Made by a program: the position numbers and the translations under genes | Origin: Candidatus Staskawiczbacteria bacterium | Lineage (GTDB): Bacteria > Patescibacteriota > Minisyncoccia > Minisyncoccales > Staskawiczbacteraceae | Length of the DNA stretch: 64,000 nucleotides | Reading direction: 5' to 3' | NCBI GenBank assembly: GCA_041661545.1 | Contig: JBAZUH010000001.1 | Span: 275,877 to 339,876 of the forward strand | The notes under the pieces: model-generated | What the model saw: only the letters and a program-made list of their open reading frames with translations | The model's database searches: none | Told to the model about the DNA's origin: nothing | Part shown: positions 1,776-59,022 of the stretch, piece by piece | How positions within the stretch are numbered: position 1 is the first letter of the stretch | How the letters are laid out: each line of letters begins with the position of its first letter

Positions 1776-1911
1776 AGCGAGGGCATTTTGCGAAAGAAAC
1801 GATTACGCAGGTGCCCCGTTGTGGGCGCCGAGTTCCAAGCGCGTTTGAAATTGTGTAAATTTAACTACAATTTCAAACGACGCTGTGTTTCTGAAGTAAA
1901 ATGCCCGAGCG
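1776..1911. repeat. family-1 nested palindromic element (REP/RPE-like)
   Basis: Ends are AGCGAGGGCATTTTGCGAAAGAAACG...CGTTTCTGAAGTAAAATGCCCGAGCG. The inner perfect hairpin is GTTTGAAATTGT...ACAATTTCAAAC. It abuts the stop codon of the 1912..3228 gene. Confidence 0.8.
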
Positions 1912-3228
1912 TTATATAACGACAGCTTCTCCTCTACCAATTAAGTCTGTTTCTTTGCCTTGAACTAATATTGCCTGCTCATCTGTAATTATTTTTAAAT
2001 TCTTAAATCTTTTTTTAGGGTTTTTTATCTTTTGTTTTATAATTTCTGCATGTTCTGGCAAATAGTGGCAAAAAATATCAAACGGAACAAGGCCTAACCC
2101 TTTTAAATTTTTTAACTTTACTATATTTTTGTCACCATCTTCGCCCCAGCCAGCTGTTTGTATAGTTTTTCCCGCAACCATACTCCCGGCCGAAACTCCA
2201 ATATAAACCTTTCCTTCTTTCAATAATTTTTTTATTATTCTTTCAAAGTTACAAGCTCTCATTGATTTTAATAAATAAAAAGTGTTTCCGCCTGCAACAA
2301 AAATAATATCTTTCATTTCTATTAAACTCATCACTTCTGATTCTTTTTTTCCATCTATATCAATTTCTTCCACATTAAAGCCCATCTCATCTCTCATAAT
2401 AATCAAGTCATTCTTTAAATAATCTAAATTTTCTTGTGGTTTTGCGGCTGTTGTTATAAAAGCTACCGTAATATCGTAGGCTGGTTTTGTTAAAAGTTTT
2501 GTTATTTCATCCCGCATAGACACCATGCCCGTTGAAGTCAACAATAAGGTTTTGGCCATATTGTGCTTTATGATATTTTTTACTAACCCTATTAAATAAT
2601 TTATCAAGGCTATAATTATTAATAACGCTCCAACTACACCCACACCAGCTATGCCAAATGGTGTTAGAAAAAATTGTAAAACCGATGTTTTAAAAAATAC
2701 TACTTTTAATAAAGGCAATTGCCAATAAATATTTAAAATTGATTGCACGTCAAAAGACTCTGTTTTGCCTACAGTTAAAACATATTTTCCTAAATTATCT
2801 GAAGAATAAACTGTTATTTTATATTTTCCAGCTAAAACATTTTCTTCTAATTCTGGGCCCTTAAAATAATAATCTCTGCTAAATTCTTCATAAAATTGTT
2901 GCCAATCAAATTTGCTTCCGTCTAAAGAATATATTTTCTCTCCTTGTGCAGAAAAAACATCTACTGAATACCTGCCATCTATATTAGAATGTGCTGGAAC
3001 CAAAAGATTTATGTATAATACAAAGTCTTTATCAGAATCTATAAAATAATCACGACTCACGCCCCTTAATTCATCATAAAAAGCTTGAGATAATTCTGGA
3101 TTTTTTATTTGAATATCTCCTGCTTGAGTGTAAATAATTGCAGGCTGGTGTGCTAATACAAAACTTGGAACAAAAAAACAACTTAAAGAAAATAAAAAAA
3201 TAACTAAAAATAAAGTTAATTTATTCAT
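1912..3228 (-). CDS. membrane protein with C-terminal peptidase S51 (dipeptidase E-like) domain
   Basis: N-terminal signal peptide and mid-protein TM segments. The C-terminal half has LLLTSTG...FITTAA...IIFVAGGNTFYLL...YIGVSAGSMVAG, typical of the S51 family. Confidence 0.65.
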   Translation of the reverse strand: MNKLTLFLVIFLFSLSCFFVPSFVLAHQPAIIYTQAGDIQIKNPELSQAFYDELRGVSRDYFIDSDKDFVLYINLLVPAHSNIDGRYSVDVFSAQGEKIYSLDGSKFDWQQFYEEFSRDYYFKGPELEENVLAGKYKITVYSSDNLGKYVLTVGKTESFDVQSILNIYWQLPLLKVVFFKTSVLQFFLTPFGIAGVGVVGALLIIIALINYLIGLVKNIIKHNMAKTLLLTSTGMVSMRDEITKLLTKPAYDITVAFITTAAKPQENLDYLKNDLIIMRDEMGFNVEEIDIDGKKESEVMSLIEMKDIIFVAGGNTFYLLKSMRACNFERIIKKLLKEGKVYIGVSAGSMVAGKTIQTAGWGEDGDKNIVKLKNLKGLGLVPFDIFCHYLPEHAEIIKQKIKNPKKRFKNLKIITDEQAILVQGKETDLIGRGEAVVI

Positions 3229-3229
3229 A

Positions 3230-3991
3230 TTAAAATACTCTATGACTGCAACTACAAACGTAACAGTCTAATGCGCATTCGCAACACCTGTAACAAAGAA
3301 ATGGCCTGCACTGACATTTATCTTTTTGCTTCATTTCTCTGCTACATTTTTTACATTTTAATATAATGCTTGGTTGTACAAATTTTTTGGGCGCTTCTTG
3401 GTATGATTCGGGTAATATGGTGCTTTTATACATTGTTCCATGACCAGGAATTATAAAATCTGCTATTTTTAAAATCATATCTCTGCTTTCTTTTAATTTT
3501 ACTGGGTTAGACGCATATGCATCGTCATGCGGATCTTTAGGAAAGTCTTCTTTCCAAAACACATCTCCGCATATTGCCACTTTTCCCTGTTCTGTATTAA
3601 CTAAAAGAGTAATACCTGTATAATCGTGCCCAGGAGTACGTAAAATTTTTATATTATCTGTAAAATTTTCCGACCAATCTTCTGAAGTATTTTTATTCCA
3701 CAAAGCAAAATATTCTAAAGTTTTAGCATCAGGAAACATGCCTATGTTTCTATAATGGTCAATATGTGAATGTGTTATACAAACAACATTAACATCTTTT
3801 ACTGACAAATTTTCTTTATTTAGAGCGTCTATTAGCAATTGTTGACTTTCTAAAACTCCTGGGTCAACCACCATTACAATATCTCCATCACGCACCAATG
3901 TAATGGTTGGCTGGGTTTTCTCTTCGCCAGTATCACCTTCAGAACCGGCGTTTGTGTAGCCCTCTAATAATATTTTTACTTGTGCTACCAT
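3230..3991 (-). CDS. MBL-fold metallo-hydrolase with Cys-rich C-terminal tail
   Basis: THSHIDHYRN (HxHxDH) plus downstream PGHD and PGHG. The last ~42 aa contain 13 Cys (CKKCSREMKQKDKCQCRPFLCYRCCECALDCYVCSCSH). Confidence 0.8.
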   Translation of the reverse strand: MVAQVKILLEGYTNAGSEGDTGEEKTQPTITLVRDGDIVMVVDPGVLESQQLLIDALNKENLSVKDVNVVCITHSHIDHYRNIGMFPDAKTLEYFALWNKNTSEDWSENFTDNIKILRTPGHDYTGITLLVNTEQGKVAICGDVFWKEDFPKDPHDDAYASNPVKLKESRDMILKIADFIIPGHGTMYKSTILPESYQEAPKKFVQPSIILKCKKCSREMKQKDKCQCRPFLCYRCCECALDCYVCSCSHRVF

Positions 3992-3998
3992 ATTTTTT

Positions 3999-10449: not shown

Positions 10450-10488
10450 CGCCTATTCCGTTATTCCGCGGAATATTGGAATAGTTAG
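10450..10488. repeat. family-2 palindromic 39-mer
   Basis: CGCCTATTCCGTTATTCCGCGGAATATTGGAATAGTTAG, identical to the copy at 10789. Its core ATTCCGCGGAAT is a perfect palindrome flanked by CTATTCC/GGAATAG. Confidence 0.9.
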
Positions 10489-10757
10489 ATTAGTGTTTTT
10501 AAAAATTTCAAAACTGCTACGCCCTTACTTGTTATTTTGTGATGGACAATCAACCCTTCGGATCTTTTTATAACAAAACCTGCTATTGCCATTTTCTTTA
10601 TGTGATCAGATGCTGTTCTAAAATTTATATTTAAAATTTTAGATATATCTACCAGCGACATTTCGGGATTTTTACTTAATAATTCCAAAATTTCAATCCG
10701 CCTGTGATTAGCAAACCCTTTTACAATTCTTTCTACTTGATAATAACTTTTACTCAT
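10485..10757 (-). CDS. ArsR-family winged-helix transcriptional regulator
   Basis: HRRIEILELLSKNPEMSLVDISKILNINFRTASDHIKKM helix-turn-helix pattern, 90 aa. Confidence 0.7.
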   Translation of the reverse strand: MSKSYYQVERIVKGFANHRRIEILELLSKNPEMSLVDISKILNINFRTASDHIKKMAIAGFVIKRSEGLIVHHKITSKGVAVLKFLKTLI

Positions 10758-10788: not shown

Positions 10789-10827
10789 GCCTATTCCGTT
10801 ATTCCGCGGAATATTGGAATAGTTAGG
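10789..10827. repeat. family-2 palindromic 39-mer (possible operator upstream of the ArsR-like gene)
   Basis: Exact 39-nt repeat of 10450..10488, located about 30 nt upstream of the regulator's start codon. Confidence 0.9.
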
Positions 10828-11982: not shown

Positions 11983-12014
11983 ACGTTTATATTTTTATTT
12001 GGGTTATTTTATAC

Positions 12015-12043
12015 TTGACAATACTTATTTAATATGCTATGAT
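12015..12043 (+). promoter_or_regulatory. strong sigma70-type promoter with extended -10
   Basis: TTGACA (12015-12020), 17-nt spacer, TATGAT (12038-12043) preceded by TGc. Confidence 0.6.
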
Positions 12044-12114
12044 TAATGTATAGCGTTAATCACGCTTTTAGCACCCCCGCCGTGAGGACTCACGGCACAA
12101 CCCCAACCACCACC

Positions 12115-12300
12115 ATGAAACTGTTTATTGCCTTCCAGACATCCGCACTTCTTTGTGCGGTCAGCTCAGCCGTTCTTCTCTCCGGCTACATCCCCGATAC
12201 CACCAACAGCTTCAGGCTGTTTTACGGGATCTTAGCGGGATTTTTTGCCCTTAAGATGGAGGGCCACGCGATCGCGGAAAAAATCATCCACAAGTTGTAG
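12115..12300 (+). CDS. putative 61-aa hydrophobic peptide (alternatively part of a non-coding structured RNA)
   Basis: ATG at 12115 gives MKLFIAFQTSALLCAVSSAVLLSGYIPDTTNSFRLFYGILAGFFALKMEGH.... No RBS (C-rich leader). The region is packed with perfect hairpins, so coding status is uncertain. Confidence 0.35.
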   Translation: MKLFIAFQTSALLCAVSSAVLLSGYIPDTTNSFRLFYGILAGFFALKMEGHAIAEKIIHKL

Positions 12301-12367
12301 CACCCCGTGCTACAACCTATGCCCTGCTCTCGCAACTTCGGTTGCGATTGCGGGGCTCTTTTTTTAT
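12293..12367 (+). terminator. double-hairpin intrinsic terminator
   Basis: GTTGTAGCAC-CCC-GTGCTACAAC, then GCCC..TCGCAAC-TTCG-GTTGCGA..GGGC, followed by a T-run. Confidence 0.75.
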
Positions 12368-12382
12368 TTCAAAATTCTGATT

Positions 12383-12420
12383 CTTACCAGTTACTCGTTA
12401 CCGGTTACTAGTTACTAATC
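12383..12420. repeat. family-3 GTAAC-rich repeat
   Basis: CTTACCAGTTACTCGTTACCGGTTACTAGTTACTAATC. Its reverse complement carries GTAACCGGTAACGAGTAACTGGTAA, as at 27063 and 32906. Confidence 0.7.
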
Positions 12421-12421
12421 C

Positions 12422-12976
12422 CTATACTAATTCTTGCTTTTTCTTCTCAACTAATGTTTTCATTTTTTCTTGGTATTGGTCAACTATTTTTTGAAGCTCA
12501 TCTTTGCCCCTAAATTTGTCATCTTCCGACATTTCTTTTGCTTTTTCTGCTGATTGAATTTTATTCCAAACATCTTCTCTTTGCCTGCGTATTACTTGCT
12601 TTGCTTGTTCTGCTTTTTCATTTAAAACTTTGCCCAAAGATAATCTATATTCTTCAGTAAGCATTGGCAAATTTAATCTAATTAAATTTTTATCAACGAC
12701 ACAAGACATACCCAACCCAGATTGAGCCATAGCCTTTTCTATTGGTTCTATGTACGAAGTGTCCCAGGGCTGTATAACTATTTGATTGTTAGAAGGAGTA
12801 GAAATTGATCCTAGCTGTTTTATTGTAAACTTTTGACCAAAAGCATTAACCTCTATGTCTTCAACCAAAGCTGGCGAAGCCCTTGAGGTTCTTATTTTAG
12901 CTAATTCAGCTTCTAAAAATTTAAATGATTTCTCAAATTCTGGCTTAGCTCTGTCTATGAATTCTTTATATGTCAT
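12422..12976 (-). CDS. frr: ribosome recycling factor
   Basis: 184 aa with ...LAKIRTSRASPALVEDIEV...LNLPMLTEE.R... pattern. Confidence 0.95.
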   Translation of the reverse strand: MTYKEFIDRAKPEFEKSFKFLEAELAKIRTSRASPALVEDIEVNAFGQKFTIKQLGSISTPSNNQIVIQPWDTSYIEPIEKAMAQSGLGMSCVVDKNLIRLNLPMLTEEYRLSLGKVLNEKAEQAKQVIRRQREDVWNKIQSAEKAKEMSEDDKFRGKDELQKIVDQYQEKMKTLVEKKKQELV

Positions 12977-12982
12977 AAATTG

Positions 12983-13058
12983 AAGCGAGGCAATGAGATT
13001 TTTCGAAGCTTGTTGTGCGAAGCGAATAAGTGCGAAGAAAAATCTTGTTGCCGAGCGA
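12983..13058. repeat. family-1 palindromic element
   Basis: AAGCGAGGCAATGAGATTTTTCGAAGC...GCGAAGAAAAATCTTGTTGCCGAGCGA. Near-identical to the copy at 23106. Fills the holB-frr spacer. Confidence 0.9.
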
Positions 13059-13060
13059 AA

Positions 13061-13819
13061 TTATAATTCCATCAGCACTATTTCCAAAGCTAATTTGGGA
13101 TTAGCGTTTGTAAATATTAATTTGTTATTTATATCTTCTATTAAACTTAAAATTTTTATTACTTTCTTTTGCGAATAATCTTTTAGTAATATTTCTCTAT
13201 AGTATTTTTGCAAAACTTCTAAAATTTCTGTCGGCTCTTGTTTATCAAAATCTATTGATTTTACATATTTAAATTTTTCTGCAAGATTAGAATCAATTAT
13301 TGGCAACAATTCTTGTAAAATTTCGCTTTCTTTTTTTGCTCTTTCAGAGTTTTTTGGTAAATTTTTTGGTTTAAAAAATTTTAATGTTTGGCACCTAGAA
13401 GCTATGGTTGCCATAAGCATGTCGGGCTTTGAAGTTATCAAAATAATTAATGTTTGACCCTTTGGCTCTTCTAAAGTTTTTAAAAAACAACTTTGCGCCT
13501 CAACATTCATTTTTTCGGCATCTTCAACAATTACCACCTTATATCCCCCATTATAAGACTTATATGAAAGAAAATTTTGAACCTCTCTTATTTGTAAAAT
13601 TTTTATTTCTCCCCCATCTCCAAACTTTGGATCTTTTTTGTTAGCCTCCGACACAATTAATAAATCGGGAAACTTGCAACCAATAAATTCTGCAAATTCT
13701 TTGGCAAAAGCTCTTTTTCCTATTTCTTTTTGGCCAACAAACAAATATGCATGCGAAAGCTGATTCAACTCAAACTTCTTTTTTAAAATATCCCATTGTT
13801 TTTTATGTCCTATCATCAT
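13061..13819 (-). CDS. holB: DNA polymerase III subunit delta'
   Basis: HAYLFVGQKEIGKRAFAKEFA...VVIVEDAEKMNVEAQSCFLKTLEEP...SRCQ AAA+ clamp-loader motifs. Confidence 0.85.
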   Translation of the reverse strand: MMIGHKKQWDILKKKFELNQLSHAYLFVGQKEIGKRAFAKEFAEFIGCKFPDLLIVSEANKKDPKFGDGGEIKILQIREVQNFLSYKSYNGGYKVVIVEDAEKMNVEAQSCFLKTLEEPKGQTLIILITSKPDMLMATIASRCQTLKFFKPKNLPKNSERAKKESEILQELLPIIDSNLAEKFKYVKSIDFDKQEPTEILEVLQKYYREILLKDYSQKKVIKILSLIEDINNKLIFTNANPKLALEIVLMEL

Positions 13820-13832
13820 ACTTAAGGTCTTT

Positions 13833-45376: not shown

Positions 45377-45381
45377 ATATA

Positions 45382-47354: not shown

Positions 47355-47993
47355 TTATAATGTCAACATGCGTCCGGTGATTAACTGAAAAATAATACTT
47401 GTTACGCTAGACCACACGCCTCCACCAAAAACAATTAACAAAATTAATATAATCACTCCATACTGTCTTAAAAAGTTTTTAATATAATCTAATTTTGCTG
47501 GCAATAAACTGAATAAAATCCAAGAACCATCTAATGGTGGCACAGGAATAAGATTAAAAATTGCTAACCATATATTAATAGCAACAACATAGATTAAAGC
47601 AATCATTATTCCTGGATTTCCTGAAATTATTGCATCGGGTATAAATCTTAATATTAATCCAAAAAATACTGCAATGGCTAAATTTGATAATGGCCCTGCA
47701 ATAGAAACCTTAATCTCTCCATATTTTTTATCTCTAAAATTATAAGGATTTACTGGAACAGGTTTTGCCCAGCCAAATAAAAATGGGCTTCCTGCTACAA
47801 ATAATAACAACGGCAAAATAATTGATCCAAACGGGTCTAAATGCTTTAAAGGATTTAGGGTTAACCTTCCTTCATATTTTGCAGTTGGATCACCCAAAGA
47901 ATAAGCCACACTTCCGTGAGCTAGTTCATGAATAATTACAGAAAAAAGCAATATAACCAAAGAAAAAATTGTAATAATTATTGTTGGATCCAT
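47355..47993 (-). CDS. site-2 protease family (M50) membrane metalloprotease
   Basis: HELAHG in the first TM, RLTLNPLKHLDPFGS, and NL.PVPPLDG. Confidence 0.85.
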   Translation of the reverse strand: MDPTIIITIFSLVILLFSVIIHELAHGSVAYSLGDPTAKYEGRLTLNPLKHLDPFGSIILPLLLFVAGSPFLFGWAKPVPVNPYNFRDKKYGEIKVSIAGPLSNLAIAVFFGLILRFIPDAIISGNPGIMIALIYVVAINIWLAIFNLIPVPPLDGSWILFSLLPAKLDYIKNFLRQYGVIILILLIVFGGGVWSSVTSIIFQLITGRMLTL

Positions 47994-48644: not shown

Positions 48645-49703
48645 TTAAAGTCCAAGGGTTTTAACTAGCTGTTTTATCAGCGAAACTACAACAGGAGGTG
48701 GCATTAAACTATTTGATAAATTGCCTTCGTCATCTTTAATTTCCCATGGTTTTTCGTGAGTTAAAACTTGTCCATCTTTAAATTCATAACTAAATTCAGG
48801 AGTAATTTCGTAGTCATCGGCTGTTTCTTTTGTTTTTTCTAATGGAATAGAATTTCTTAACATTATTTTTGGTATGCCTTGCAAATTATAAGCTTCTTTT
48901 ATCAACATTTCATCTTTTTCTAATCTTTCTCTAATTGGTTCAATGCCATGCTCGTCACCTTCTTTAGCAACCATTCTAGCTCCAGGACAACCAGAATTAT
49001 CACAAATTAAATGGAAAATTCCATTATCGTGTTCAATTTTTTGAGTTGGCAAAAGTTTTAAACTTCTAGAATTATTACAAAGCGGACAAATAACTCTTGT
49101 TTTTACCCTTTCATCAATTATTGTTGTAGGCACATCAATTAAAACAAAAACATCTTGGTCATCTCTATAGTTAATTAAATCTCTAAAATATAAAGCATAA
49201 GAAATTTGATCTAAATCTCTTGGAAAGCCATCAATAAAAATTGTTTTCTTGCCAAGTTTGGCAATTTCTCTTTTAGCTAAAGCTAAAATCAATTCTGTTG
49301 GCAATAAAACTTTTGTAGATCTACTTTCAAATGCTTCCATTATTTTTTCTAATGGCAGATAACCTCTATAACTTTGTTTTAAAAATTCAACCAATTCGCC
49401 CTTTTTAGCTTCATCTTTCATTGTTTCATCAAAAGACCTTATCATATCTCCCACTGAAAAATGAGCAATTTTGTCTTTATCTATAACTTCTGCCAACATT
49501 TTAGCATATGTTCCCTTTCCAGAAGATTTTTTTCCCATTAAATATGCAATAAAAGTATTTTTTTGCATATATTCTCTAAGTTTTGCAATTTCTGGGCCGG
49601 CTTTATACTCAAAATACTCTTGACGAGATTTAACGTCGGTTAAATCAAACTTTTTATATTGATCACTCTTCGTTACAAAAAGTGGAAAATCTAAATCTTT
49701 CAT
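48645..49703 (-). CDS. adenylate kinase family protein (long form, zinc LID)
   Basis: P-loop GKKSSGKGTYA, GFPRDLDQ, and a Cys4 LID (CPLCNN...CDNSGCPG). 352 aa with N- and C-terminal extensions. This is a second AK-family gene in the window. Confidence 0.65.
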   Translation of the reverse strand: MKDLDFPLFVTKSDQYKKFDLTDVKSRQEYFEYKAGPEIAKLREYMQKNTFIAYLMGKKSSGKGTYAKMLAEVIDKDKIAHFSVGDMIRSFDETMKDEAKKGELVEFLKQSYRGYLPLEKIMEAFESRSTKVLLPTELILALAKREIAKLGKKTIFIDGFPRDLDQISYALYFRDLINYRDDQDVFVLIDVPTTIIDERVKTRVICPLCNNSRSLKLLPTQKIEHDNGIFHLICDNSGCPGARMVAKEGDEHGIEPIRERLEKDEMLIKEAYNLQGIPKIMLRNSIPLEKTKETADDYEITPEFSYEFKDGQVLTHEKPWEIKDDEGNLSNSLMPPPVVVSLIKQLVKTLGL

Positions 49704-49716
49704 ATTATTATTTTTT

Positions 49717-49839
49717 AAGCGAGGGAATAAATTTAAAGCGAGCCAAATAAATTTTTAGAGGAGGGGCAATCGCCTTCAGGACATTCCCCCGACGAGCAAA
49801 AATTTGATTTGGCGAGCGGATAAATTTATTTCTCGAGCG
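49717..49839. repeat. family-1 nested palindromic element
   Basis: AAGCGAGGGAATAAATTTAAAGCGAGCCAAATAAATTTTT...AAAAATTTGATTTGGCGAGCGGATAAATTTATTTCTCGAGCG. The right arm supplies the last codons and stop of the 49826..50689 gene. Confidence 0.85.
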
Positions 49840-50689
49840 TTATGTTTTTACCGTTGGAAACAAATTTAATGTCTCCATCTTTATATGTTGTAAATATCTT
49901 TATACCAAAATTTTCCAATCTTTGCAAAGTTTCTGGCGTAGGATGGCCATAAGAATTTTTGCCAACTTCTATAACTGCAATTTTAGGATTAACATTTTCT
50001 AAAAATATATTAGAAGTAGAATATTTACTTCCATGATGAGCAACTTTTAAAACATCTGATAAAATATCTTCTTTAGATTTTACCAGTGCATATTCTCCTT
50101 TGCTTGAAATATCTCCTGTAAAAAGAAACGCGTTAGCTCCAAAAATTACTTTTGAAACAACTCCGGCATCATTTGAAGTTTTTTTTGGTTCTTGGCCCTC
50201 AATGCTGTTAAACGGATACAATGTTTTTATCAAAACATTGCCGGCTCTTATTTCTTGGCCCGATTGCGCAATTATAATTTTAGCTCCCATTTCTTTTTGT
50301 TTTTCTAGTTCATTTAACCAAATATTATATTCTGCGTTTTGCCTTACAACGCCTGTCCATAATATATAATCTATTTTGTATATTTTCAAAACAGATAAAA
50401 GCCCTCTCATATGATCTGATTCTGGGTGAGACAAAATTACCAAATCTATTGTTTTATCCCAAACAGGCATATTATTTGCTAATTTTTCTAAAACTGCTTG
50501 GCCCGGGCCACCGTCAATTAAAATTTGATGATTTTGTGGAGTTTCAATAAAAGCTGAGTCTCCTTGCCCCACATCTAAAAAACTTATTTTTAAATTAGCG
50601 TCTCTAGCTAATACAAAAATCTCTCGCCAACACACAAAATTCAAAATTAACAAAATCCCCGCAATAAATAAAATTATTTTCTTGTCCAT
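49826..50689 (-). CDS. ComEC/Rec2-related MBL-fold protein (lactamase-like domain only)
   Basis: N-terminal TM, FLDVGQGDSAFIE......LIDGG, SHPESDH, KVAHHGSKYS. Confidence 0.8.
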   Translation of the reverse strand: MDKKIILFIAGILLILNFVCWREIFVLARDANLKISFLDVGQGDSAFIETPQNHQILIDGGPGQAVLEKLANNMPVWDKTIDLVILSHPESDHMRGLLSVLKIYKIDYILWTGVVRQNAEYNIWLNELEKQKEMGAKIIIAQSGQEIRAGNVLIKTLYPFNSIEGQEPKKTSNDAGVVSKVIFGANAFLFTGDISSKGEYALVKSKEDILSDVLKVAHHGSKYSTSNIFLENVNPKIAVIEVGKNSYGHPTPETLQRLENFGIKIFTTYKDGDIKFVSNGKNITLEK

Positions 50690-50706
50690 TTTAATTATTA
50701 TATACC

Positions 50707-50732
50707 AAAAAACGCCCAGAAGGGCGTTTTTT
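50707..50732. terminator. bidirectional intrinsic terminator
   Basis: AAAAAA-CGCCC-AGAA-GGGCG-TTTTTT. Confidence 0.8.
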
Positions 50733-50739
50733 GTAAAAA

Positions 50740-50904
50740 CTATTTCTTCATTCCCAAAATTTTAAACATTCCTGTTCCGCAAATTGGGCAAGTTCCCTTC
50801 ATTGCAGCTCTTTTTTTACCACCCTTTCCATTCATCTCAACTTCTTTAGGGTCTTTCATATCTCTTTTTGCTTTGCACTTTACGCAATATGCTTCTGTAG
50901 CCAT
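50740..50904 (-). CDS. DUF5679-like zinc-ribbon mini-protein (54 aa)
   Basis: Hand translation gives MATEAYCVKCKAKRDMKDPKEVEMNGKGGKKRAAMKGTCPICGTGMFKILGMKK. Too short for the ORF track. Confidence 0.7.
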   Translation of the reverse strand: MATEAYCVKCKAKRDMKDPKEVEMNGKGGKKRAAMKGTCPICGTGMFKILGMKK

Positions 50905-51059
50905 AAATTTCATGAAACTCGAAATTCGAATATCGAAATTCGAAACATATTTTGAATTTATTTATTTTAAAAATTCTAATTTGTTTCTGATTTCGTGCTT
51001 CGTGCTTCGGATTTTAGTATTATTAGCCTATTTTATATCAGCCAAAACCATTGTCAACC

Positions 51060-51860
51060 CTATTGAGCGGTCCAACCACCATCTACAACCATTGTAGAGC
51101 CTGTCATATAAGAAGATTCGTCCGATGCCAAAAATACAACTGCACTGGCAATTTCTTCTGCTTGACCATCTCTTTTCATTGGTATCATTGCCAGCATAGC
51201 CTCTTTTACTTTAGGATCCATAGCTACTTTATGAGTTCCTGGAGTATCAATGGATCCTGGGTCAATAACATTAACTCTTATGCCCACAGGAGCTAATTCT
51301 AGAGCCATTGCTTTTGTCATTGCCGTCATACCACCTTTTGAAGCACAGTAATGTGTTAAACCTGCAAAACCCATTAAAGCAGCAATTGAAGCAATATTTA
51401 TAATAGAACCCCTTTGTCCTTTTTCATTGGGTGCGTTATCCTTCATTTTTAAAGCGCAAGCTTGTGCCATTAAAAAACTTCCTTTTAAATTTACATTAAT
51501 TACTTTTTCAAAATTAGCTTCTGGCATTTGCAAAAATGGCTCAAACGGAAATATTCCTGCATTATTTACTAAAATATCTATTTTTTTAAATTTTTTAATA
51601 GTTTCTGCCACTACATTATCAATATCTGCTTTTTTACTTATATCACATTTTATAGCAAGGGCCTCGCCTCTTATTTTTTTAATTTTTTCTACAACCTGGT
51701 TACATCCATCAATATCTATATCGCAAATAATCACTTTGGCGCCCGCCTGCACTAATTTTATAGCATCAGCCTCGCCCATTCCCTTAGCTCCTCCTGTTAC
51801 TATTGCAACTTTACCTTTTAAATCACCAAATTTTATTGTTGTTCTATTTAATCCAAACAT
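51060..51860 (-). CDS. SDR family oxidoreductase
   Basis: VAIVTGGAKGMG (TGxxxGxG), NNAG, and Y-x3-K (YCASKGG). Confidence 0.9.
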   Translation of the reverse strand: MFGLNRTTIKFGDLKGKVAIVTGGAKGMGEADAIKLVQAGAKVIICDIDIDGCNQVVEKIKKIRGEALAIKCDISKKADIDNVVAETIKKFKKIDILVNNAGIFPFEPFLQMPEANFEKVINVNLKGSFLMAQACALKMKDNAPNEKGQRGSIINIASIAALMGFAGLTHYCASKGGMTAMTKAMALELAPVGIRVNVIDPGSIDTPGTHKVAMDPKVKEAMLAMIPMKRDGQAEEIASAVVFLASDESSYMTGSTMVVDGGWTAQ

Positions 51861-51900
51861 ATATAAATAAATTTAATTATATTGAATAATTATACCACAA

Positions 51901-52434
51901 CTATTCTCTGCAACAATCTATAACAGCCTGAACAACTTTTCCTAATTTTGCCATAATTCCTTTTTTATCTGTATCTTTTTTATCTATTTGATTATCTTCT
52001 ATTTTCTTTACCTCGCCCATATCTATTAATTTTAAATTTAAACCCCAAAATAATGAATATAATTGATAAGATTTTTTAAATAAATCTTCTGCATCTTTTC
52101 TATTACCTCTAGTTAAAGCCTTTGTTCCAACTTCCATTAACCTCATTGAGGTAGCTAATAAATGCTTAGAAATGCACCAAACTTCTCCTTCTGGATCTTT
52201 TACAATTCTTTTCAATAACTCTTTTCTCATTTCTCTGGCAGTATCTAACAAATCAAAATATTCTGATTTTCCGGTTTTATTTGCAGTAAAGAAAAAATGC
52301 TCTTCTATAGAAATTAAATTCATTATAGCAATTGATAAATCTTCATCTGAAGATAAATCTAACTGATTATCTTTGTCTTCTTGAACCTTTTTAATAAATT
52401 CTTCTACTTTTTTATCTGTTAAATTATTTTCCAT
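51901..52434 (-). CDS. hypothetical protein
   Basis: 177-aa helical-looking ORF with no recognised motif. Last gene of the copper/redox gene string. Confidence 0.55.
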   Translation of the reverse strand: MENNLTDKKVEEFIKKVQEDKDNQLDLSSDEDLSIAIMNLISIEEHFFFTANKTGKSEYFDLLDTAREMRKELLKRIVKDPEGEVWCISKHLLATSMRLMEVGTKALTRGNRKDAEDLFKKSYQLYSLFWGLNLKLIDMGEVKKIEDNQIDKKDTDKKGIMAKLGKVVQAVIDCCRE

Positions 52435-52439
52435 GCTAT

Positions 52440-52979
52440 TTATATAATTTTATTTTGTATTAATATATGAAATATTAAACTTGCTATTAGCACCGCACCA
52501 AAAGGAATAACAACTTTTTGATATGGAAAAAATGCTTTTCCGTTATTTTTTGTTTTCAAATAAAGATTTGTCCAATGCCCTATAAAAAATACTACTGCTC
52601 CAATAATTGATCCAACCAATATTTTATCCATCCCCCAAATCATATTTAATGGATGTCCAACAACTCCTGCATAATATAAAGGTACATAGGTTAATATAAT
52701 ATAAGACAAAGTAATTACAACACCATCATCAGAAAAACTCCATTTTTTATTTTTCATAAAAAGTAGAGTCCAAATAATTATAACTGTTAACAAAGCTCCT
52801 ATCCAAATAGAAGCGACCACGTCATCAATTCCAAGCCACCTTGAAAATCCAAGACCTGCTCCAATGGCTACAACGCAAACTGGGCATGGTTGTGCGCTAA
52901 CTATTCCAGCTTTTAATAAACCCAACATTGATAACCCTAAAATAATTACTTTATTCTTGCTGTGCAATATTTGTTTCAT
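52440..52979 (-). CDS. polytopic membrane protein with CPVC motif
   Basis: Five hydrophobic helices, with SAQPCPVCVVAIGAG at the start of helix 2. Its start overlaps the end of the upstream thioredoxin-like gene. Confidence 0.6.
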   Translation of the reverse strand: MKQILHSKNKVIILGLSMLGLLKAGIVSAQPCPVCVVAIGAGLGFSRWLGIDDVVASIWIGALLTVIIIWTLLFMKNKKWSFSDDGVVITLSYIILTYVPLYYAGVVGHPLNMIWGMDKILVGSIIGAVVFFIGHWTNLYLKTKNNGKAFFPYQKVVIPFGAVLIASLIFHILIQNKII

Positions 52980-53394
52980 TTTTTAAAAAATTAATAACAT
53001 CTACGTCTCCTATTAAACAGCTACCTGCTTGCCCCGAATTTATTGAAGGGTTGTACAAAAATGGTATTGAAATGCCGCTACTTGCATCTATTTTGCATTC
53101 TGTTGCCACTTGACTCAATAATCCTGCATTTGCTATAAGCTCGGCGCTGCTTTTGCCATTAAAAGGAATTTCTAATCTTGTTAATTTTATTTTTTGGTCA
53201 ATATTATTTTCTTGTATAAAAGCTTCTACATTTTTACAGTGAGGACAATCTTCCCCAAAGAACAAAAGTATTCCTTCTGGTCTTTGCACGGGTTCAACTG
53301 AAGGAATTTTAACAAAAAAACCAGATTGAAACCCCCAAAACAAAAATCCGGCAAAAATTATTATTAAAACTGTGTATATTATTGCTTTATCCAT
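52951..53394 (-). CDS. membrane-anchored thioredoxin-fold protein
   Basis: N-terminal TM followed by LLFFGEDCPHCKNVEAFI (CxxC). Confidence 0.7.
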   Translation of the reverse strand: MDKAIIYTVLIIIFAGFLFWGFQSGFFVKIPSVEPVQRPEGILLFFGEDCPHCKNVEAFIQENNIDQKIKLTRLEIPFNGKSSAELIANAGLLSQVATECKIDASSGISIPFLYNPSINSGQAGSCLIGDVDVINFLKNETNIAQQE

Positions 53395-53468
53395 AAGTTT
53401 ACGTAGCGTAGCGATATATTATTTATGTTTTAATTTTACTACTTTACTAAAAATTTGCAATCCCAAAA

Positions 53469-55667
53469 TTAACTATATCTCTTCATGCTCAGTGCATTTA
53501 GCACAACACTAACCGATGAAAACGCCATGGCTCCAGCAGCAATAGATGGGCTTAAAAGCCAACCAGTTAAAGGATATAAAACTCCTGCTGCTACCGGAAT
53601 TCCTACTATATTATAAAAAAATGCCCAAAAAAGACCTAATTTAATTTTATTTAAGGTATATTTACTTAAATCTATTGCTTTTACAACGTCTCTTAAATCA
53701 TCTTTAATCAAAACAATTTCGCCAGTTTCCATTGCTACATCGGTTCCAGAACCTAAAGCAATTCCCAAATCTGATTGAGCTAGGGCGGGTGCATCGTTAA
53801 TTCCATCGCCCACCATTGCCACAACCATGCCTTCTAATTGTAATTTTTTTATTTCATCAGATTTTCCTTGTGGTAAAACTTCCGCTAAAACTCTATCAAT
53901 TCCAAGTTGTTTAGCAATAGCTTGTCCTACTCTTTTATTATCTCCGGTAATAATAGCAACAGATTTTCCCATTTTATGCAAAATATCTACCGCTTCTTTA
54001 GAATTTTCTTTCAAAACATCTGCTACCGCAATAATTCCTATAATCTTTTTTCCAAAAGACAAAATCATGGCTGTTTTCCCCTGATTTTCAAAAGCTATCA
54101 TTTTTTCCTCAACTTCATTGGTAGATATTTTATTATCTTTCATTAAAAGTCTTGTTCCCAATAAAATTTTACTTTTGTTATAAGTAGCCTCAATTCCTTT
54201 TCCAGGAACCGCTTGAAAATTTTTAACTTCAAATAGTTTAATATTGTTTTCTTTGGCTTTATTTACAACTGCTTGGGCCAAAGGATGTTCTGAATTTTTT
54301 TCTACGCTAGCTGAAATTTCTAAAATTTCTTTTTCAGTTCTTTTTTTATCAATTAAAAGAATTTCCGTGACTACTGGCTCTCCTTTAGTTAAAGTTCCTG
54401 TTTTATCAAAAACAACCATATTTACATCTTTGGCTATTTGCAAAGCTTTAGAAGACTTAATTAAAATACCATTTTTTGCAGCCAATCCGGTTCCCATCAT
54501 AACTGCTGTGGGAGTTGCTAATCCTAACGCACATGGACAAGCAATTATCAAAACTGCCACAAACACCCCTAAAGCCATAGAAATTTGAGACGAAATAAAA
54601 AACCAAATTAATCCAGCGATTAATGCAATAATAATTACAACTGGCACAAAATAAAAAGAAACTTTATCTGCTAATAATTGTATAGGGGCCTTTGACCCCA
54701 TGGCATCTTCCACAATTTTTATAATCTGAGATAGCATTGTATCTCTACCAACTCGCATAGCCTTAAATTGCAAAACACCCGTTTTATTTATAGTGGCTCC
54801 TATAACCTCATCTCCTTTTTTCTTTTCAACTGGAATTGATTCTCCGGTAATTGCCTTTTCGTCAACACCAGAGTATCCATAAACAACAATTCCATCAACA
54901 GGAATTTTTTGACCAGGTTTTACCAAAACAATATCGCCTACTTTTACTTCTGAAATTGGTATATCAAACTCTCTGCCGTCTTTTATAATAATAGCTGTTT
55001 TAGGCTGAAGGCCCATTAAATTTTTTATAGCCGAAGATGTTTTTCCTTTAGTAACTGCTTCTAAATATTTTCCTAATGAAATAAAAACTAAAATAAATAC
55101 TGCCGACTCAAAATAAAAACTATCCATTGATATATTTTTGCCAATAGATAATAAAATTAAATTTACCAAACTATAAAAATAAGCTGCAGATGTTCCAATT
55201 AAAATTAGGGTATCCATATTTGGCCCCAATCTTAATATTTTATTAAATCCCGATGCCCATATATTAAAACAAATAAAAATAACAACGGTTGCTAAAATTG
55301 CTTGAATATATAAATTATATTTTTCTAAAAATCCAAAAACCGGCAAACCAATCATCCCGCCCATTACTATATAAATTACCGGTAAACCAAAAATAAAAGA
55401 AAACAAAAATCTATTTCTTAATTTTTTAACTTCTGCGCCCTTTTCCATCTGGTCACTGTCATCAAGGGCCTTATAGCCTAAATCTTTAATATCTTTTTTA
55501 ATATCTTCAATTTTTACTTTTGTTGAATCAAATTCTAAATATGCTTTTTCATTAGCAAGATTAACGGATGCCGAAATAACTCCGCTTTTTTTCTTTAAGC
55601 CGTGTTCTATTACAGAAGCACACGAAGCACAGGTCATTCCTTGAATTTTGAGCGTTGTTTTTTGCAT
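53469..55667 (-). CDS. copA: copper-translocating P-type ATPase
   Basis: HMA domain [41 protein letters not shown]. Confidence 0.95.
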
Positions 55668-55668
55668 G

Positions 55669-55887
55669 CTACTTTTTTACCTGCCTGGTGGCAGGCAGAT
55701 TTAATTCTTTTAATATTTTAGACAGCTTTAGACCATATGTTTCGCAAACTTCTCCAATTTGAAGGTCATCAACTTCAAATTGAGCCATCGGACAAGACAA
55801 ACAAGGCACACCATTTTTTGCCAAAATTTTATCTGCGCCTTTTTGATTCATTATTTTTGCTAATGTTGTTTTTGATGTAATTTTCAT
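55669..55887 (-). CDS. DUF1858-like redox-disulfide small protein
   Basis: 72 aa with ...[13 protein letters not shown]...L.E.C..YG pattern. Confidence 0.6.
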
Positions 55888-55896
55888 AAAATTATT

Positions 55897-56041
55897 AAGC
55901 GAGGCAACAAACTTGTAACGAGGCAGTTAATTTTCAGCGTATTTCAGGACACGAAGTGCCTGACGAAGCCATTTAGACGCGAAGCGTATCAATGGCGGTA
56001 GCAGAAAATTGACTGCCAAGAGAAAAAAACTATTGCTGAGC
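55897..56041. repeat. family-1 nested palindromic element
   Basis: AAGCGAGGCAACAAACTTGTAACGAGGCAGTTAATTTTCAGCG...GCAGAAAATTGACTGCCAAGAGAAAAAAACTATTGCTGAGC. Confidence 0.8.
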
Positions 56042-56044
56042 TTC

Positions 56045-57466
56045 TTAATTAACTACCTCTATAATTCCCGTAATCATTCCCATTTGGCAACTAAACCTAT
56101 TCTTACCAACTTTTTCTGGCGTAAATTCTTTAATTGAAACTTGACCAGGAATTAAATCAATAGATCCTGAAAATAAACCAGCAGAAATAATTGAACCATT
56201 ACAGCCCCCTGCTGTTTTATCTGCAGTTATTTCCCATCTAACAGGAACGCCCACTTTTACCTTAAAATAATTTGGCACATCTTTACCTCCATAAGCCACC
56301 ATTTTTATAACTTGTTTACCATCAACTATTGGAGGCAAATCTTTTTGATCAACAACTTGTGCTGGGGGGTTAATGTCAATTCCAGTAAAACCTAAAACAT
56401 TAGTTTGGTTTGAAATATTATACAAAGCAAAAAATAAAACTAAAAAACCTGCAACTTTTGAAAATTTTTCTGCTAAATTAGGTTTTGCTAAAAATTTGAC
56501 ACTAGACAAACCAATAAACAACAAAGCTGGTGCAGTGCCCAAAGCAAAAGCCCCCATCATAAGTGCCCCACTAAATGCATTTCCCGAAATTAATGCTAAA
56601 CTTTGAGCGGTAATTGTAAAACCACAAGGCAAGAAAAAAGTTAACCCTCCCATAATAAACGGCATATATTTGCCTTTAAAATTATTTTCGTTGGCAATAT
56701 ATCTGGTTGCTGATTTTGGAAGACCCAAAGGGTACCCCATTTGAAATTTTCTAAAAACTCGCGCTCCCAGCATTTGAAATCCCAAAACAATCATTAAAAT
56801 AGAAACTGCAATAATTAAGAAAGCCGTAAACTGAATAGATATTTGAAGTCTGCTTCCTATTAAACCTAATATTCCTCCCAAAATGGCATACGTTATAATT
56901 CTTCCCGCATTAAACATTAAATGCGGTTGAAATTTTTTAAAAATACTTGCATTTTCTGCATAAAGGCTATTCCATTGTTTTGACATTGATAAGACAATGC
57001 CCCCAACAAGCGCAGCACAAGAAGATATACCAGCTAAAAAACCAAATCCTAAAAATGCAATCAAAGAAGAAGCAGAACTTAAGCTTAAAAAATCGGCTAT
57101 GCCAACTTTTTGTAAAATTAAAAAAGCAATAATTATAAAAATTGCTATATTAAAAGCCACTAATGTTGGGCTAGTGCCCTTAACGTTGCTGTTTGTTTTC
57201 GTATTGGCTAATTCCTGCCTACCGGCAGGCAGGCGTGCGGAATTAGCCGGTAAGGTCACATCTGAAAATGTGTAATTTTCTTCTTTAAACAATTTGTTTA
57301 ATCTTTCCGGGCTAGGTCTATTATTTTCATACTGCACAAAAACCTCTCCTTTTGATGTAGAAGCATCAACAGATTTTACTTCGGGCAAATCTAAAAGCTT
57401 TTTCTCAATCAAAATTTCACACGAAGCGCAATGCATTCCTTTAACTTTATATATATGCTCATTCAT
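56045..57466 (-). CDS. HMA domain - polytopic permease - C-terminal cupredoxin-like domain fusion protein
   Basis: N-terminal GMHCASCEILIE, about 6 TM helices (TauE/CcdA-like appearance), and a C-terminal ~100-aa beta domain ending ...FSCQMGMITGIIEVV. Confidence 0.7.
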   Translation of the reverse strand: MNEHIYKVKGMHCASCEILIEKKLLDLPEVKSVDASTSKGEVFVQYENNRPSPERLNKLFKEENYTFSDVTLPANSARLPAGRQELANTKTNSNVKGTSPTLVAFNIAIFIIIAFLILQKVGIADFLSLSSASSLIAFLGFGFLAGISSCAALVGGIVLSMSKQWNSLYAENASIFKKFQPHLMFNAGRIITYAILGGILGLIGSRLQISIQFTAFLIIAVSILMIVLGFQMLGARVFRKFQMGYPLGLPKSATRYIANENNFKGKYMPFIMGGLTFFLPCGFTITAQSLALISGNAFSGALMMGAFALGTAPALLFIGLSSVKFLAKPNLAEKFSKVAGFLVLFFALYNISNQTNVLGFTGIDINPPAQVVDQKDLPPIVDGKQVIKMVAYGGKDVPNYFKVKVGVPVRWEITADKTAGGCNGSIISAGLFSGSIDLIPGQVSIKEFTPEKVGKNRFSCQMGMITGIIEVVN

Positions 57467-57475
57467 AAAAAATAT

Positions 57476-57558
57476 AAGCGAGCCAATAAATTTTTTCGAG
57501 GCGAATGGGCACCGTCCGCAGACGGGTTGAGACGAGAAAAAATTTGATTGGCAAGCGA
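57476..57558. repeat. family-1 palindromic element
   Basis: AAGCGAGCCAATAAATTTTTTCGAGGCG...GACGAGAAAAAATTTGATTGGCAAGCGA. Lies between csoR and the HMA-permease gene. Confidence 0.85.
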
Positions 57559-57560
57559 TG

Positions 57561-57836
57561 TTATTTGTTAAAAAGCTTAGTTACTTTTAATATTTCGTCT
57601 GTCATTTCTTTTTTTCTTTTCTCATTTTTTGATGTCATTGCGTTTTTAAAACAAGAGTTTAAATGACTCTCCATCAACATCTCGTGAGCAGAACGCAAAA
57701 GACCAATAACAGCCAAATTTTGCTGCATAATATCTACACAATATTCTCCGCCCTCAGTCATTTCTATAATTTTAGATATAGAACCCTGAGCTTTTTTAAA
57801 GCTGATTAAAGCTTTTTGCCTATTTTCACTTATCAT
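57561..57836 (-). CDS. csoR: CsoR/RcnR family metal-sensing repressor
   Basis: 91 aa with ...GGEYCVDIMQQNLAVIGLLRSAHEMLMESHLNSC (C-H-C ligand pattern). Confidence 0.85.
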   Translation of the reverse strand: MISENRQKALISFKKAQGSISKIIEMTEGGEYCVDIMQQNLAVIGLLRSAHEMLMESHLNSCFKNAMTSKNEKRKKEMTDEILKVTKLFNK

Positions 57837-57860
57837 AATAATATATATTTTAATTGTTAT

Positions 57861-57881
57861 TATACCCCTACCTAGGGTATA
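57861..57881. promoter_or_regulatory. putative CsoR operator
   Basis: TATACCC-CTACCTA-GGGTATA inverted repeat about 25 nt upstream of csoR. It resembles the GC-tract-centred TACCC/GGGTA operators known for CsoR. Confidence 0.6.
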
Positions 57882-57921
57882 GGTCTATAATATCAAAATA
57901 AAAAGCCCCCGTCAAGCCCTT

Positions 57922-59022
57922 CTACTTGATAATACCCCCGCCTAAAACTTGGCTACCCTTGTAAAATACTGCGGATTGGCCTTGTGCCAAGGCTTTGCCT
58001 AATTTTTTAAAAACTAATTTTCCATCCTTATACAGAATGGCTTTTTGTAAAGGGGCTCTATATCTAGTTCTAACATCCATTAATACCGGAAAAATCTCCG
58101 GTTTATTTATCCAACTAATATTTATTATTTTAGCTTCTTTTACAGCCAAATCTTTCTCTGTGCCCACATATATAATATTTTTCTTTATATCTTTTTTAAC
58201 AACAAAATACGGCCCGTGCCCATTTTTTATATCTAATCCATGTCTTTGCCCAATTGTATAATAATAGACACCGTCATGCTTCCCTATTTTTTTACCATCA
58301 ATAGAAATTATTTCTCCTATTTTTGGTTTTATATACATTTTTAAGAAATTTTTCATATCAAACTGCCCAACAAAGCAAACGCCTTGACTATCTTTTTTTT
58401 CAGCATTTTCTAATTTAAATTTTTTAGCTAATTTTCTAACTTCTGGTTTTTCTAAATTACCTACTGGAAATAAAATTTTATTAAGTTGCTTTTGTTTTAA
58501 TGTATATAAAAAATATGTTTGATCTTTATTAGCATCAACCGCTTTTAACAAGCGAGGCAATGAACTTTTTCGAGAAGAGGGTGCCCCGTAGAGAGGCTCT
58601 CCTCGCAGAAAAAGTTTATTGCCGAGCGAAGTTTGCGCATAATGACCAGTTGCAACAAAATCAAAACCTTGTTTCATTGCTTTATCAAAAAAATAACCAA
58701 ATTTAATAATTTTATTACACATTACATCGGGGTTTGGAGTAATCCCCTTTTTATAAGAATCAATCATATACTTACCAACTTCTGTTTCATATTCTTTAGA
58801 AAAATCCCAAGTTAAAAAGGGAATTCCTAGCTTAGCGCAAGCTCTCATGGCATCTTGTCTATCTGCTTTCCAAATACATTCTTTTTCCAGAATTTCTGGA
58901 GACCATTGACGCATATAAATTCCAACTACATTAAAACCAGCTTTTTTTAACAAAGCTGCTGAAACGCTAGAATCTACTCCGCCAGACATAGCACATGCAA
59001 CTCTAACCATAATATTTTTCAA
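57922..59022 (-). CDS. mnmA: tRNA 2-thiouridine(34) synthase MnmA, carrying an in-frame repeat insertion
   Basis: CAMSGGVDSSV PP-loop, ATGHYAQ, NKDQTYFLY. The segment SLGNKLFLRGEPLYGAPSSRKSSLPRL is encoded by a family-1 element. Confidence 0.9.
   Translation of the reverse strand: MKNIMVRVACAMSGGVDSSVSAALLKKAGFNVVGIYMRQWSPEILEKECIWKADRQDAMRACAKLGIPFLTWDFSKEYETEVGKYMIDSYKKGITPNPDVMCNKIIKFGYFFDKAMKQGFDFVATGHYAQTSLGNKLFLRGEPLYGAPSSRKSSLPRLLKAVDANKDQTYFLYTLKQKQLNKILFPVGNLEKPEVRKLAKKFKLENAEKKDSQGVCFVGQFDMKNFLKMYIKPKIGEIISIDGKKIGKHDGVYYYTIGQRHGLDIKNGHGPYFVVKKDIKKNIIYVGTEKDLAVKEAKIINISWINKPEIFPVLMDVRTRYRAPLQKAILYKDGKLVFKKLGKALAQGQSAVFYKGSQVLGGGIIK
58550..58630. repeat. family-1 palindromic element inserted in frame in mnmA
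   Basis: AAGCGAGGCAATGAACTTTTTCGAGAAGAGGGTGCCCCGTAGAGAGGCTCTCCTCGCAGAAAAAGTTTATTGCCGAGCGAA. 81 nt, 27 codons, no stop in the mnmA frame. Confidence 0.85.

Follow-up and report, generated by a model that had tools for sequence, protein, structure and literature searches.

What accounts for the GC-rich palindromes that recur along a 64,000-nucleotide stretch of a Candidatus Staskawiczbacteria genome (assembly GCA_041661545.1, contig JBAZUH010000001.1, positions 275,877 to 339,876; the whole of this stretch is called the window below)? A preliminary description had listed nine loci at which there are elements with conserved ends and variable cores. All nine are present where it had placed them and carry the ends that it had given, with lengths of 75-150 nt and a density of about one site per 7 kb. 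With a probability of about 0.65, they belong to a family of small palindromic repeats, non-autonomous and confined to one lineage, of the kind represented by REP/REPIN sequences, transposable elements of the miniature inverted-repeat type (MITEs) and Rickettsia palindromic elements (RPEs), which has spread through Staskawiczbacteria and close relatives. Such mobile palindromes are favoured because the copies are numerous and restricted to one lineage, orthologous sites are found filled, empty or decayed, copies are nested in one another, subfamilies recur, near-identical copies occupy unrelated loci, and some insertions are read in frame within genes. The preliminary interpretation, a REP/RPE-like family with conserved termini and variable structured cores, is thereby supported.

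Conserved ends and recurrent cores of the element

The end motifs occur about 100-fold above chance in the window. AGCGAGSCAAT with at most one mismatch is matched 10 times, against 1.7 expected, and none of 100 shuffles reaches 10; with up to three mismatches, the 20-nt left end is matched 8 times (0.09 expected) and the 20-nt right end 6 times (0.05 expected). A covariance model, built from 33 single-unit copies and run unfiltered, matches the window only at element loci and always on the plus strand, where full copies score 60-77 bits; on the opposite strand the palindromic reflections of the elements reach 17-28 bits. The only one of the nine loci that the model misses is the copy at 1776, because its stem is a variant (GGGCATTTT/AAAATGCCC) with the outer ends kept.

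On the plus strand the unit reads A-GC-GA-GGCAAT(A/G)AA(T/C)TTTTT ... core ... AAAAA(T/G)TT(G)ATTGCC-GA-GC-G, and on the mRNA strand CGCUCGGCAAU...AUUGCCUCGCU. It forms one long hairpin, composed of a 2-bp GC clamp, a tandem G·A mismatch, a stem of about 16 bp (GGCAAT plus an A/T run) and a GC-rich apical hairpin. The conserved left end and matching right end of the preliminary description are both present, but the outer hexamers do more than match, as they pair in the 2-bp clamp across the mismatch: the ends AGC-GA-GGC / GCC-GA-GCG place a 5'-GA-3'/5'-GA-3' tandem mismatch in a C-GA-G context. In the copy at 23107, the clamp pair C-G is replaced by T-A on both sides (GT...AC), a compensatory change. 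Stem position 7 is always irregular: a G is bulged out of the 3' arm, or else the 5' arm contributes the G of a G·T pair. The arms (AGCGAGGCAATAAATTTTT) are not self-complementary and are devoid of a GTAG head. Single units are 69-96 nt long, composites reach 150 nt, and each of the inverted termini takes up about 20 nt; fold z-scores of the elements lie between -3 and -7.

Across 40 copies and 15 modelled pairs, the stem is paired in 98.5% of cells. Six pairs have double-sided changes in a total of 19 cells (e.g., GGCAAT/ATTGCC to GCCAAT/ATTGGC or GACAAT/ATTGTC), a level that none of 500 shuffles reaches and that collapses in slid registers, so that the proposed stems are backed by covariation. 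The cores are themselves hairpins, as the preliminary description had it; they do not vary freely, however, since a handful of core types, forming subfamilies common to several genomes, recurs across genomes and unrelated loci (e.g., GGTGCCCCGTAGAGAGGC, GGTCCACTTGCCCGAAGAGGCAAAGGGGG and ..CACGAAGTG..). The two copies said to be near-identical (12984 and 23107) share 69 of 75 positions (92%) although they stand at unrelated loci.

The elements also differ from their surroundings in composition (39-52% GC, versus 27-35% in the flanks), which agrees with the earlier remark on their GC-richness. As that remark's companion on placement had suggested, they fill spacers closely, starting 0-6 nt past the upstream stop and ending 5-14 nt before the downstream ATG. 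Copies occupy the few positions that can be tolerated in so compact a genome: short AT-rich spacers inside operons, and in addition protein surface loops.

Distribution, occupancy and decay of copies

A scan for the exact two-end pattern, with each of 185,579 species represented by a single genome, gave 59 matches, 25 of which are real copies, in 14 genomes; the other 34 are chance matches without a stem, in GC-rich genomes. Nine of the 14 genomes are labelled Staskawiczbacteria, three "Patescibacteria group" and two Saccharibacteria. For one of the last two (L045) the label is doubtful, as its proteins are 54-88% identical to those of the window (frr 78%, MreB 88%). The same pattern found at least 120 stretches in metagenome contigs, and the covariance model confirmed 66 copies in the 80 loci examined; two matches in viral contigs are chance occurrences in GC-rich DNA. 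Further copies therefore exist in at least 14 related species genomes and in many metagenome contigs, and the 25 real ones from species genomes all belong to Staskawiczbacteria or to low-GC Patescibacteria that are unclassified, with none in viral contigs. At gathering score, Rfam returned only two tRNAs from the whole window and no match to the elements, and no description of the family was found in the literature searched on repeats, palindromes, hairpins or MITEs in the Candidate Phyla Radiation (CPR), Patescibacteria or Parcubacteria. In line with the preliminary remark that the family was not a described one, it is previously undescribed, in a lineage for which none was found described.

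Comparison of orthologous sites bears most directly on mobility. A relative (L060, MnmA 80% identical) is syntenic with window positions 49.8-61.3 kb, and over 21 kb it holds no copy at all; over the corresponding genes the window has four loci plus remnants. The spacer between the CsoR-like and DsbD genes has no element in L060 (25 nt) and in L009 (3 nt), and is filled by a type-D copy in the window, by a copy with a different core in L054 and by a nested pair in L008. Conversely, several junctions filled in other genomes are empty in the window (iscS-nifU, upstream of rplO, secY and the next gene, and rpsG-fusA, the last with full copies in L128, L129 and L135). At the iscS site, the copies form a series of decay: a full 93-nt copy in L008, a 3'-deleted one in L020, a 39-nt remnant in the window (60602-60640) and nothing in L060. 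Copies decay through internal deletion, and mobility is supported by the orthologous sites, which occur in filled, empty and decayed form.

Nesting points in the same direction. Of the loci that had been called nested or doubled, those at 30337, 49717 and 55897 consist of an outer shell around an inner copy, while the one at 13833 is a larger composite. Nested copies are found in the window and in L008, L009, L010, L020 and L107; in every case a basal outer stem, with arms of about 12-20 nt, surrounds a complete inner unit, which suggests that new copies also enter existing ones. In L107, at the junction orthologous to 1776, an outer shell of usual orientation encloses an inner copy of the opposite orientation. 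Insertion is not accompanied by a target-site duplication: matching flank k-mers (k = 2-5, offsets 0-2) around 40 copies are not in excess over shuffled partners. TCGCT as a specific duplicated target was rejected, as empty orthologous sites contain none, and the conserved outer bases consequently belong to the element.

The copy at 58551-58629 (plus strand, 74.6 bits) lies inside mnmA (57922-59010, minus strand), as had been claimed; it is in frame and is translated as SLGNKLFLRGEPLYGAPSSRKSSLPR directly after the ATGHYA motif. Among 26 aligned MnmA homologues, many have an insert at exactly the same position, with the same ends (SLGN(K/Q)(L/I)F ... (K/R)K.LLPR, or the SLANQIF / LAR variant) and with differing cores and lengths, while homologues without it have a short loop (KNGK) in its place. 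In the metagenome sample, six of the seven in-gene copies share this position in mnmA, their proteins being no more than 45-50% identical to that of the window, and the seventh splits the TGT domain of queuine tRNA-ribosyltransferase (tgt). In-frame copies recur in three genes, mnmA, iscS and tgt, and are all translated in the same reading frame; since all of them keep one open frame through the element, an intron-like removal at the RNA level was set aside. Frames through the element are open in 27, 35 and 22 of 40 on the sense strand, against 10, 19 and 2 of 40 on the antisense strand.

An AlphaFold model of the window's MnmA is confident as a whole, with a predicted local distance difference test score (pLDDT) of 86 and a predicted template modelling score (pTM) of 0.85; the former falls to 41-71 over residues 131-160, a stretch that includes the 26-residue insert, which forms a loop flanked by confidently modelled core elements. 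The modelled insert fits a tolerated surface excursion. The mnmA site may have been hit repeatedly, or it may go back to a single ancient insertion whose core was replaced later; core replacement would follow from nesting and subsequent loss of the outer shell. A search of 5.8 billion proteins with concatenated element peptides returned a single match, a mis-called N-terminal extension over an intergenic copy, and is uninformative on the frequency of translation. The MnmA alignment (A1) also contains inserts of other kinds: NPSTR(S/F)(V/A)RSG(R/H)S-like segments in P0009, P0012 and P0078, WSLPAGRQ in P0002 and, at the element's own MnmA loop, KREI(R/P)...-type segments in P0009, P0017 and P0059. 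To judge by these sequences, the lineage may harbour further translated repeat families.

Orientation, mechanism and rival explanations

According to the preliminary description, all copies are oriented alike with respect to the genes. This is true of all nine window loci, but beyond the window the rule is not absolute, being followed by about 93% of copies. The usual orientation is seen in 26 of 28 copies from species genomes. In metagenome contigs, it prevails by 57 to 5 overall, by 34 to 2 for copies between co-directional genes, by 16 to 2 where one flank is visible and by 7 to 1 within genes, the one exception in the last group being probably a spurious open reading frame (ORF) at a contig edge. 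Genuine exceptions occur in L019, L077/L127, L116 and L121 and in the inner copy of L107. Because nearly all genes run with replication, an orientation relative to genes is not separable from one relative to the fork; local GC skew over the 8-kb loci was tried as a marker of replication direction and discarded, as it is confounded by coding-strand composition.

The two strands of the element are not equivalent. The AGCGAG strand, antisense to the mRNA, is the better folder in 87 of the 96 distinct copies (with RNA parameters, mean -31.9 versus -28.3 kcal/mol) and in all six copies folded with DNA parameters. The difference arises because its G·A/G·A mismatches become U·C/C·U on the sense strand, because its G·T pair or bulged G becomes A·C or a bulged C there, and because C-GNA-G apices favour the AGCGAG strand (78 copies, against 14 on the other strand). 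DNA hairpins are classically stabilised by tandem sheared G·A pairs of the type 5'-Y-GA-R-3' and by C-GNA-G triloops.

Mobility would probably depend on a structure-specific enzyme that acts in trans and recognises the DNA folded into a hairpin, following a REP/RAYT- or IS200/IS605-like logic rather than that of a cut-and-paste DDE transposase. An enzyme of this kind is favoured because there is no target duplication, the asymmetry of the ends is conserved, one strand folds better and about 93% of copies share their orientation. Being co-transcribed within operons, the copies may have a secondary effect on mRNA processing or translation.

Several observations weigh against the family being mobile palindromes of this kind. 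Elements are found at the same junctions, and at the same site in mnmA, in lineages that diverged deeply; their function could have been conserved there, or the copies could be an ancient vertical inheritance subject to gene conversion. None of the 30 window ORFs examined, all housekeeping, encodes a transposase or another candidate enzyme, and tblastn with an IS200 TnpA query, a weak test, gave no match in about 310 kb. Many of the apical loops take the form C-UNCG-(G) on the sense RNA, motifs resembling stable RNA tetraloops; the argument for a DNA hairpin is for this reason suggestive and not decisive, and a constraint at the RNA level may act on the apical loops. Finally, the better-folding strand serves as template for both leading-strand synthesis and transcription. 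In the IS608 paradigm, it is the template of the lagging strand on which the active strand is located (PMC6006769), so that the strand favoured here is opposite to that prediction.

A rival view is that the elements are cis-acting RNA hairpins of the host, a form of operon punctuation in polycistronic mRNAs, where they would be processed by an RNase III-type enzyme, stabilise 3' ends or couple translation. If the hairpin were cleaved at its base, near-leaderless downstream cistrons would result, in a host without Shine-Dalgarno sites: of 62 genes with an ATG start, only 1 is preceded by a Shine-Dalgarno-like tetramer, whereas 12% of random 17-mers contain one. The upstream regions of window genes, depleted in such motifs, are A/T-rich instead, and the source organism makes no use of Shine-Dalgarno initiation. 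The common orientation relative to flanking genes, the tight spacing to the previous stop and the next ATG, the covarying stem, the CUNCG(G) loops of the sense strand and the occupancy of some junctions across distant genomes while the core changes would all suit a role in the transcript. It is less easily reconciled with the translation of copies within mnmA, iscS and tgt, the presence of nested, truncated or collapsed copies, reverse-oriented copies in tandem junctions, and a close relative that manages 21 syntenic kb without any copy, with spacers of 3-25 nt. The sense RNA is moreover the weaker folder in the 87 of 96 copies mentioned, as G·A and G·T of the opposite strand correspond in it to U·C/C·U and A·C mismatches. 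A host RNA-hairpin role is a live secondary possibility, though an unlikely one, not required by the data and a poor fit with the translated, nested, collapsed and absent copies. Rather less likely still, the elements might be the substrate of an undescribed hairpin-specific DNA/RNA system, which would act either in duplication-free, structure-guided mobilisation or as domesticated punctuation. In the first form, insertion would occur without duplication and prefer hairpin tips and the one mnmA site; in the second, polycistronic mRNA would be processed just 5' of start codons, compensating for the absent Shine-Dalgarno-led initiation. If such a system existed, it would recognise its substrate by the invariant tandem G·A clamp, the C-GNA-G loops of the non-coding strand and the orientation lock of 93%.

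Two further explanations are very improbable. Ordinary Rho-independent terminators or attenuators that share sequence by chance would likewise be GC-richer hairpins in AT-rich intergenic DNA, and a few copies are indeed followed by a T-rich spacer (e.g., 57476). A terminator scan of 12000-31000 and 49000-59000 nevertheless flags other hairpins there and none of the elements, which bears out the preliminary distinction between the two; UCGCU and no U-run follows the stem base, copies stand within operons of essential genes (ribosomal proteins, frr, secY) and inside ORFs, and common ends of 20 nt far exceed what a terminator needs. The terminator reading was rejected on the scan. Integron attC-like sites, or other site-specific recombination sites marking gene cassettes, would likewise be imperfect palindromes of variable length with conserved termini, irregular bases, one better-folding strand and uniform orientation. 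In attC sites the core sites R''/R' read RYYYAAC...GTTRRRY, and cassette arrays adjoin intI/attI. The elements end instead in AGCGAG/GAGCG (compared by eye with the consensus RYYYAAC/GTTRRRY), their flanks are core housekeeping genes whose synteny is conserved with or without the element, copies lie inside ORFs, and no integrase was found in the window. The elements accordingly qualify neither as intrinsic terminators nor as attC sites, nor as members of an Rfam family.

For the favoured group of small mobile palindromes, descriptions of the families used in comparison are given in PMC10969869, PMC3116915 and PMC3337134. RPEs are much alike in behaviour: both are small palindromic repeats of reduced, AT-rich genomes that are intergenic as well as translated in frame in unrelated housekeeping genes (here mnmA, iscS and tgt), a defining property of RPEs, both form several subfamilies, and no transposase is known for either (PMC10969869). 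The present family differs in its host (CPR versus Alphaproteobacteria), in the length of its single units (69-96 nt versus about 100-150 nt in RPEs), and in its shared 20-nt terminal stem with interchangeable cores, strong orientation bias and frequent nesting. Homology with the Rickettsia families is unlikely, the host being one of the Patescibacteria; the two are set apart here by their descriptions. With REP/REPIN sequences, which are moved by RAYT transposases (Y1 HUH) whose gene is usually present once and has the repeats on its flanks, the elements share inverted conserved arms around a spacer that form one long imperfect hairpin, abundance between genes, absence of target-site duplication and conserved stem irregularities (PMC3116915, PMC3337134). 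A REP unit, however, is an imperfect palindrome of 20-40 nt with a conserved GTAG-type 5' tetranucleotide, and a REPIN has two such units in inverted order about a spacer, whereas the arms here are not palindromic REPs and carry no such head, so that only the architecture of two arms plus spacer corresponds; in addition, copies lie inside ORFs, the host belongs to the CPR, and no RAYT gene was found in a weak search of about 310 kb only.

Palindrome-associated elements derived from IS200/IS605, whose single-strand transposition is of the "peel and paste" kind, resemble the family in the lack of target duplication, in DNA hairpins, in strand asymmetry and in an orientation bias of the replication type (PMC6006769). 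They differ in that no conserved target tetra- or pentanucleotide stands beside the copies here, a single hairpin spans the whole element in place of two subterminal ones, the better-folding strand is on the side of the leading-strand template, the reverse of IS608, and no TnpA was found (the same weak search of about 310 kb). MITEs such as Correia/NEMIS, ERIC, RUP and Chunjie share the size, the terminal inverted repeats, the intergenic position within transcription units, the subfamilies and the truncated copies (PMC10969869). The elements fall within the MITE size range (about 50-500 bp) and have terminal inverted repeats; unlike MITEs, they show no target-site duplication, their terminal repeats differ by a fixed GA/TC asymmetry, and no related autonomous insertion sequence is known for the family.

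Genomes of CPR bacteria, or Patescibacteria, are usually described as streamlined, and the literature searched yielded no account of interspersed repeats in them. The present repeats sit in ribosomal-protein and other essential operons of a CPR lineage, and have written palindromes into the conserved enzymes MnmA, IscS and Tgt of lineages that share only about 45% identity in MnmA. They would provide a second, independent example of the RPE phenomenon, in which selfish palindromes create protein insertions. The family could serve as a ready strain-typing marker for uncultivated Staskawiczbacteria-type organisms, is a likely cause of assembly breaks, and offers a clean system for asking whether replication or transcription fixes the orientation of palindromic repeats. 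Should the orientation lock or the mnmA hotspot reflect a mechanism, that mechanism would be new.

Individual copies and their genomic setting

All copies in the window are on the plus strand. The divergent long copy at 1776-1911 (136 nt, AGCGAG-GGCATTTT...AAAATGCC-CGAGCG) lies between a gene for an S51 peptidase (stop at 1912) and a DUF167 gene (ATG at 1766); its DNA fold reaches -36.3 kcal/mol (z -7.2). The single-unit copy at 12984-13058 (75 nt, 64.5 bits) separates a holB-like gene (13061-13819) from frr (12422-12976), a junction that is also occupied in L045, L070 and L085. Between mreB (13988-14995) and the holB-like gene, the composite at 13833-13982 combines a two-hairpin subfamily of about 128 nt, with GAATTC in its stem and also present in L008, with an extra solo right end at 13962-13981; part of the composite scores 17.6 bits. 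The second 75-nt single unit, at 23107-23181 (64.7 bits), is directly upstream of rpsM. The nested locus at 30337-30473 (73.5 bits), between rplO and secY, consists of a shell (30337-30360 and 30453-30473) and a complete inner copy of core type B (30361-30452).

At 49718-49839 (60.1 bits), an outer shell encloses an inner copy at 49737-49818. This locus had been said to supply the last codons of a gene, and its outer right arm does provide the last four (T-L-E-K) and the stop; the gene encodes a protein of the metallo-beta-lactamase fold (49826-50689), and L010 has the same arrangement. At 55898-56041, the outer shell surrounds a degenerate inner copy at about 55917-56022, for which the covariance match covers 55914-56026 (32.1 bits). 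Its neighbours are an HMA/DsbD gene (56045-57466) and a small ORF (55669-55887), the latter homologous to L060 13435-13677 and matching PF08984/DUF1858 weakly. The single unit at 57477-57558 (82 nt, 77.3 bits), between the CsoR-like gene and the HMA/DsbD gene, has the GCCAAT/ATTGGC stem variant and core type D.

Apart from the nine loci, the collapsed remnant at 60602-60640, within iscS (59673-60887), encodes LAKSNF and scores 13.1 bits. A solo element end at 20190-20209, which reads TCGTTCGGCAATAAAATT on the sense strand and abuts the ATG of rplM, is probably also a remnant. The sequence TTGCTCGCTTCGCCCGC at 45377-45400 may be another; it stands just upstream of an ORF (45050-45376) between rpsG and fusA that encodes 108 hydrophobic residues without a Pfam match.

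The window, part of the metagenome-assembled genome of an uncultivated bacterium whose genome is tiny, has a GC content of about 32%, and its GC skew is uniformly negative on the plus strand; almost every gene is on the minus strand. Its genes are those of housekeeping functions (ribosomal proteins, EF-Tu, EF-G, secY, frr, mreB, iscS, nifU, mnmA and metal transport). In the ORF for ribosomal protein S9 (19241-19840), about 77 residues precede the S9 domain if the listed TTG start is real. Between tuf and fusA, positions 41000-42970 leave about 1.9 kb without a minus-strand gene; the GC fraction there is 0.39-0.41 (2-kb windows), compared with a window average of about 0.32. Five small plus-strand ORFs follow one another in this region, three of them with a "...G(E/K)EGW...(R/K)E(I/L)P" pattern; the region has the look of foreign DNA inserted into the str operon. 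Rfam at a permissive threshold gave no credible match in the ORF-poor region at 41-43 kb.

Other repeated sequences of the window are of different types. A 32-nt palindrome, CTATTCCGTTATTCCGCGGAATATTGGAATAG, occurs in identical form at 10453-10484 and 10791-10822, on either side of the gene for a small winged-helix regulator (10485-10757); the pair could be operators or belong to another repeat family. Two different genes (47355-47993 and 52951-53394) have the same string of about 25 nt, (A)TATCGCTACGCTACGTAAACTT, immediately before their ATG (ATGGAT...). Short GC-rich hairpins unrelated to the palindromic family (e.g., CCCGCTCAGCGGG, GCTGGGCGAATTGCCCAGC and CCTGCCACCAGGCAGG) lie in the spacers 5' of several ATGs, at 28310-28360, 38700-38740 and 53668-53710.

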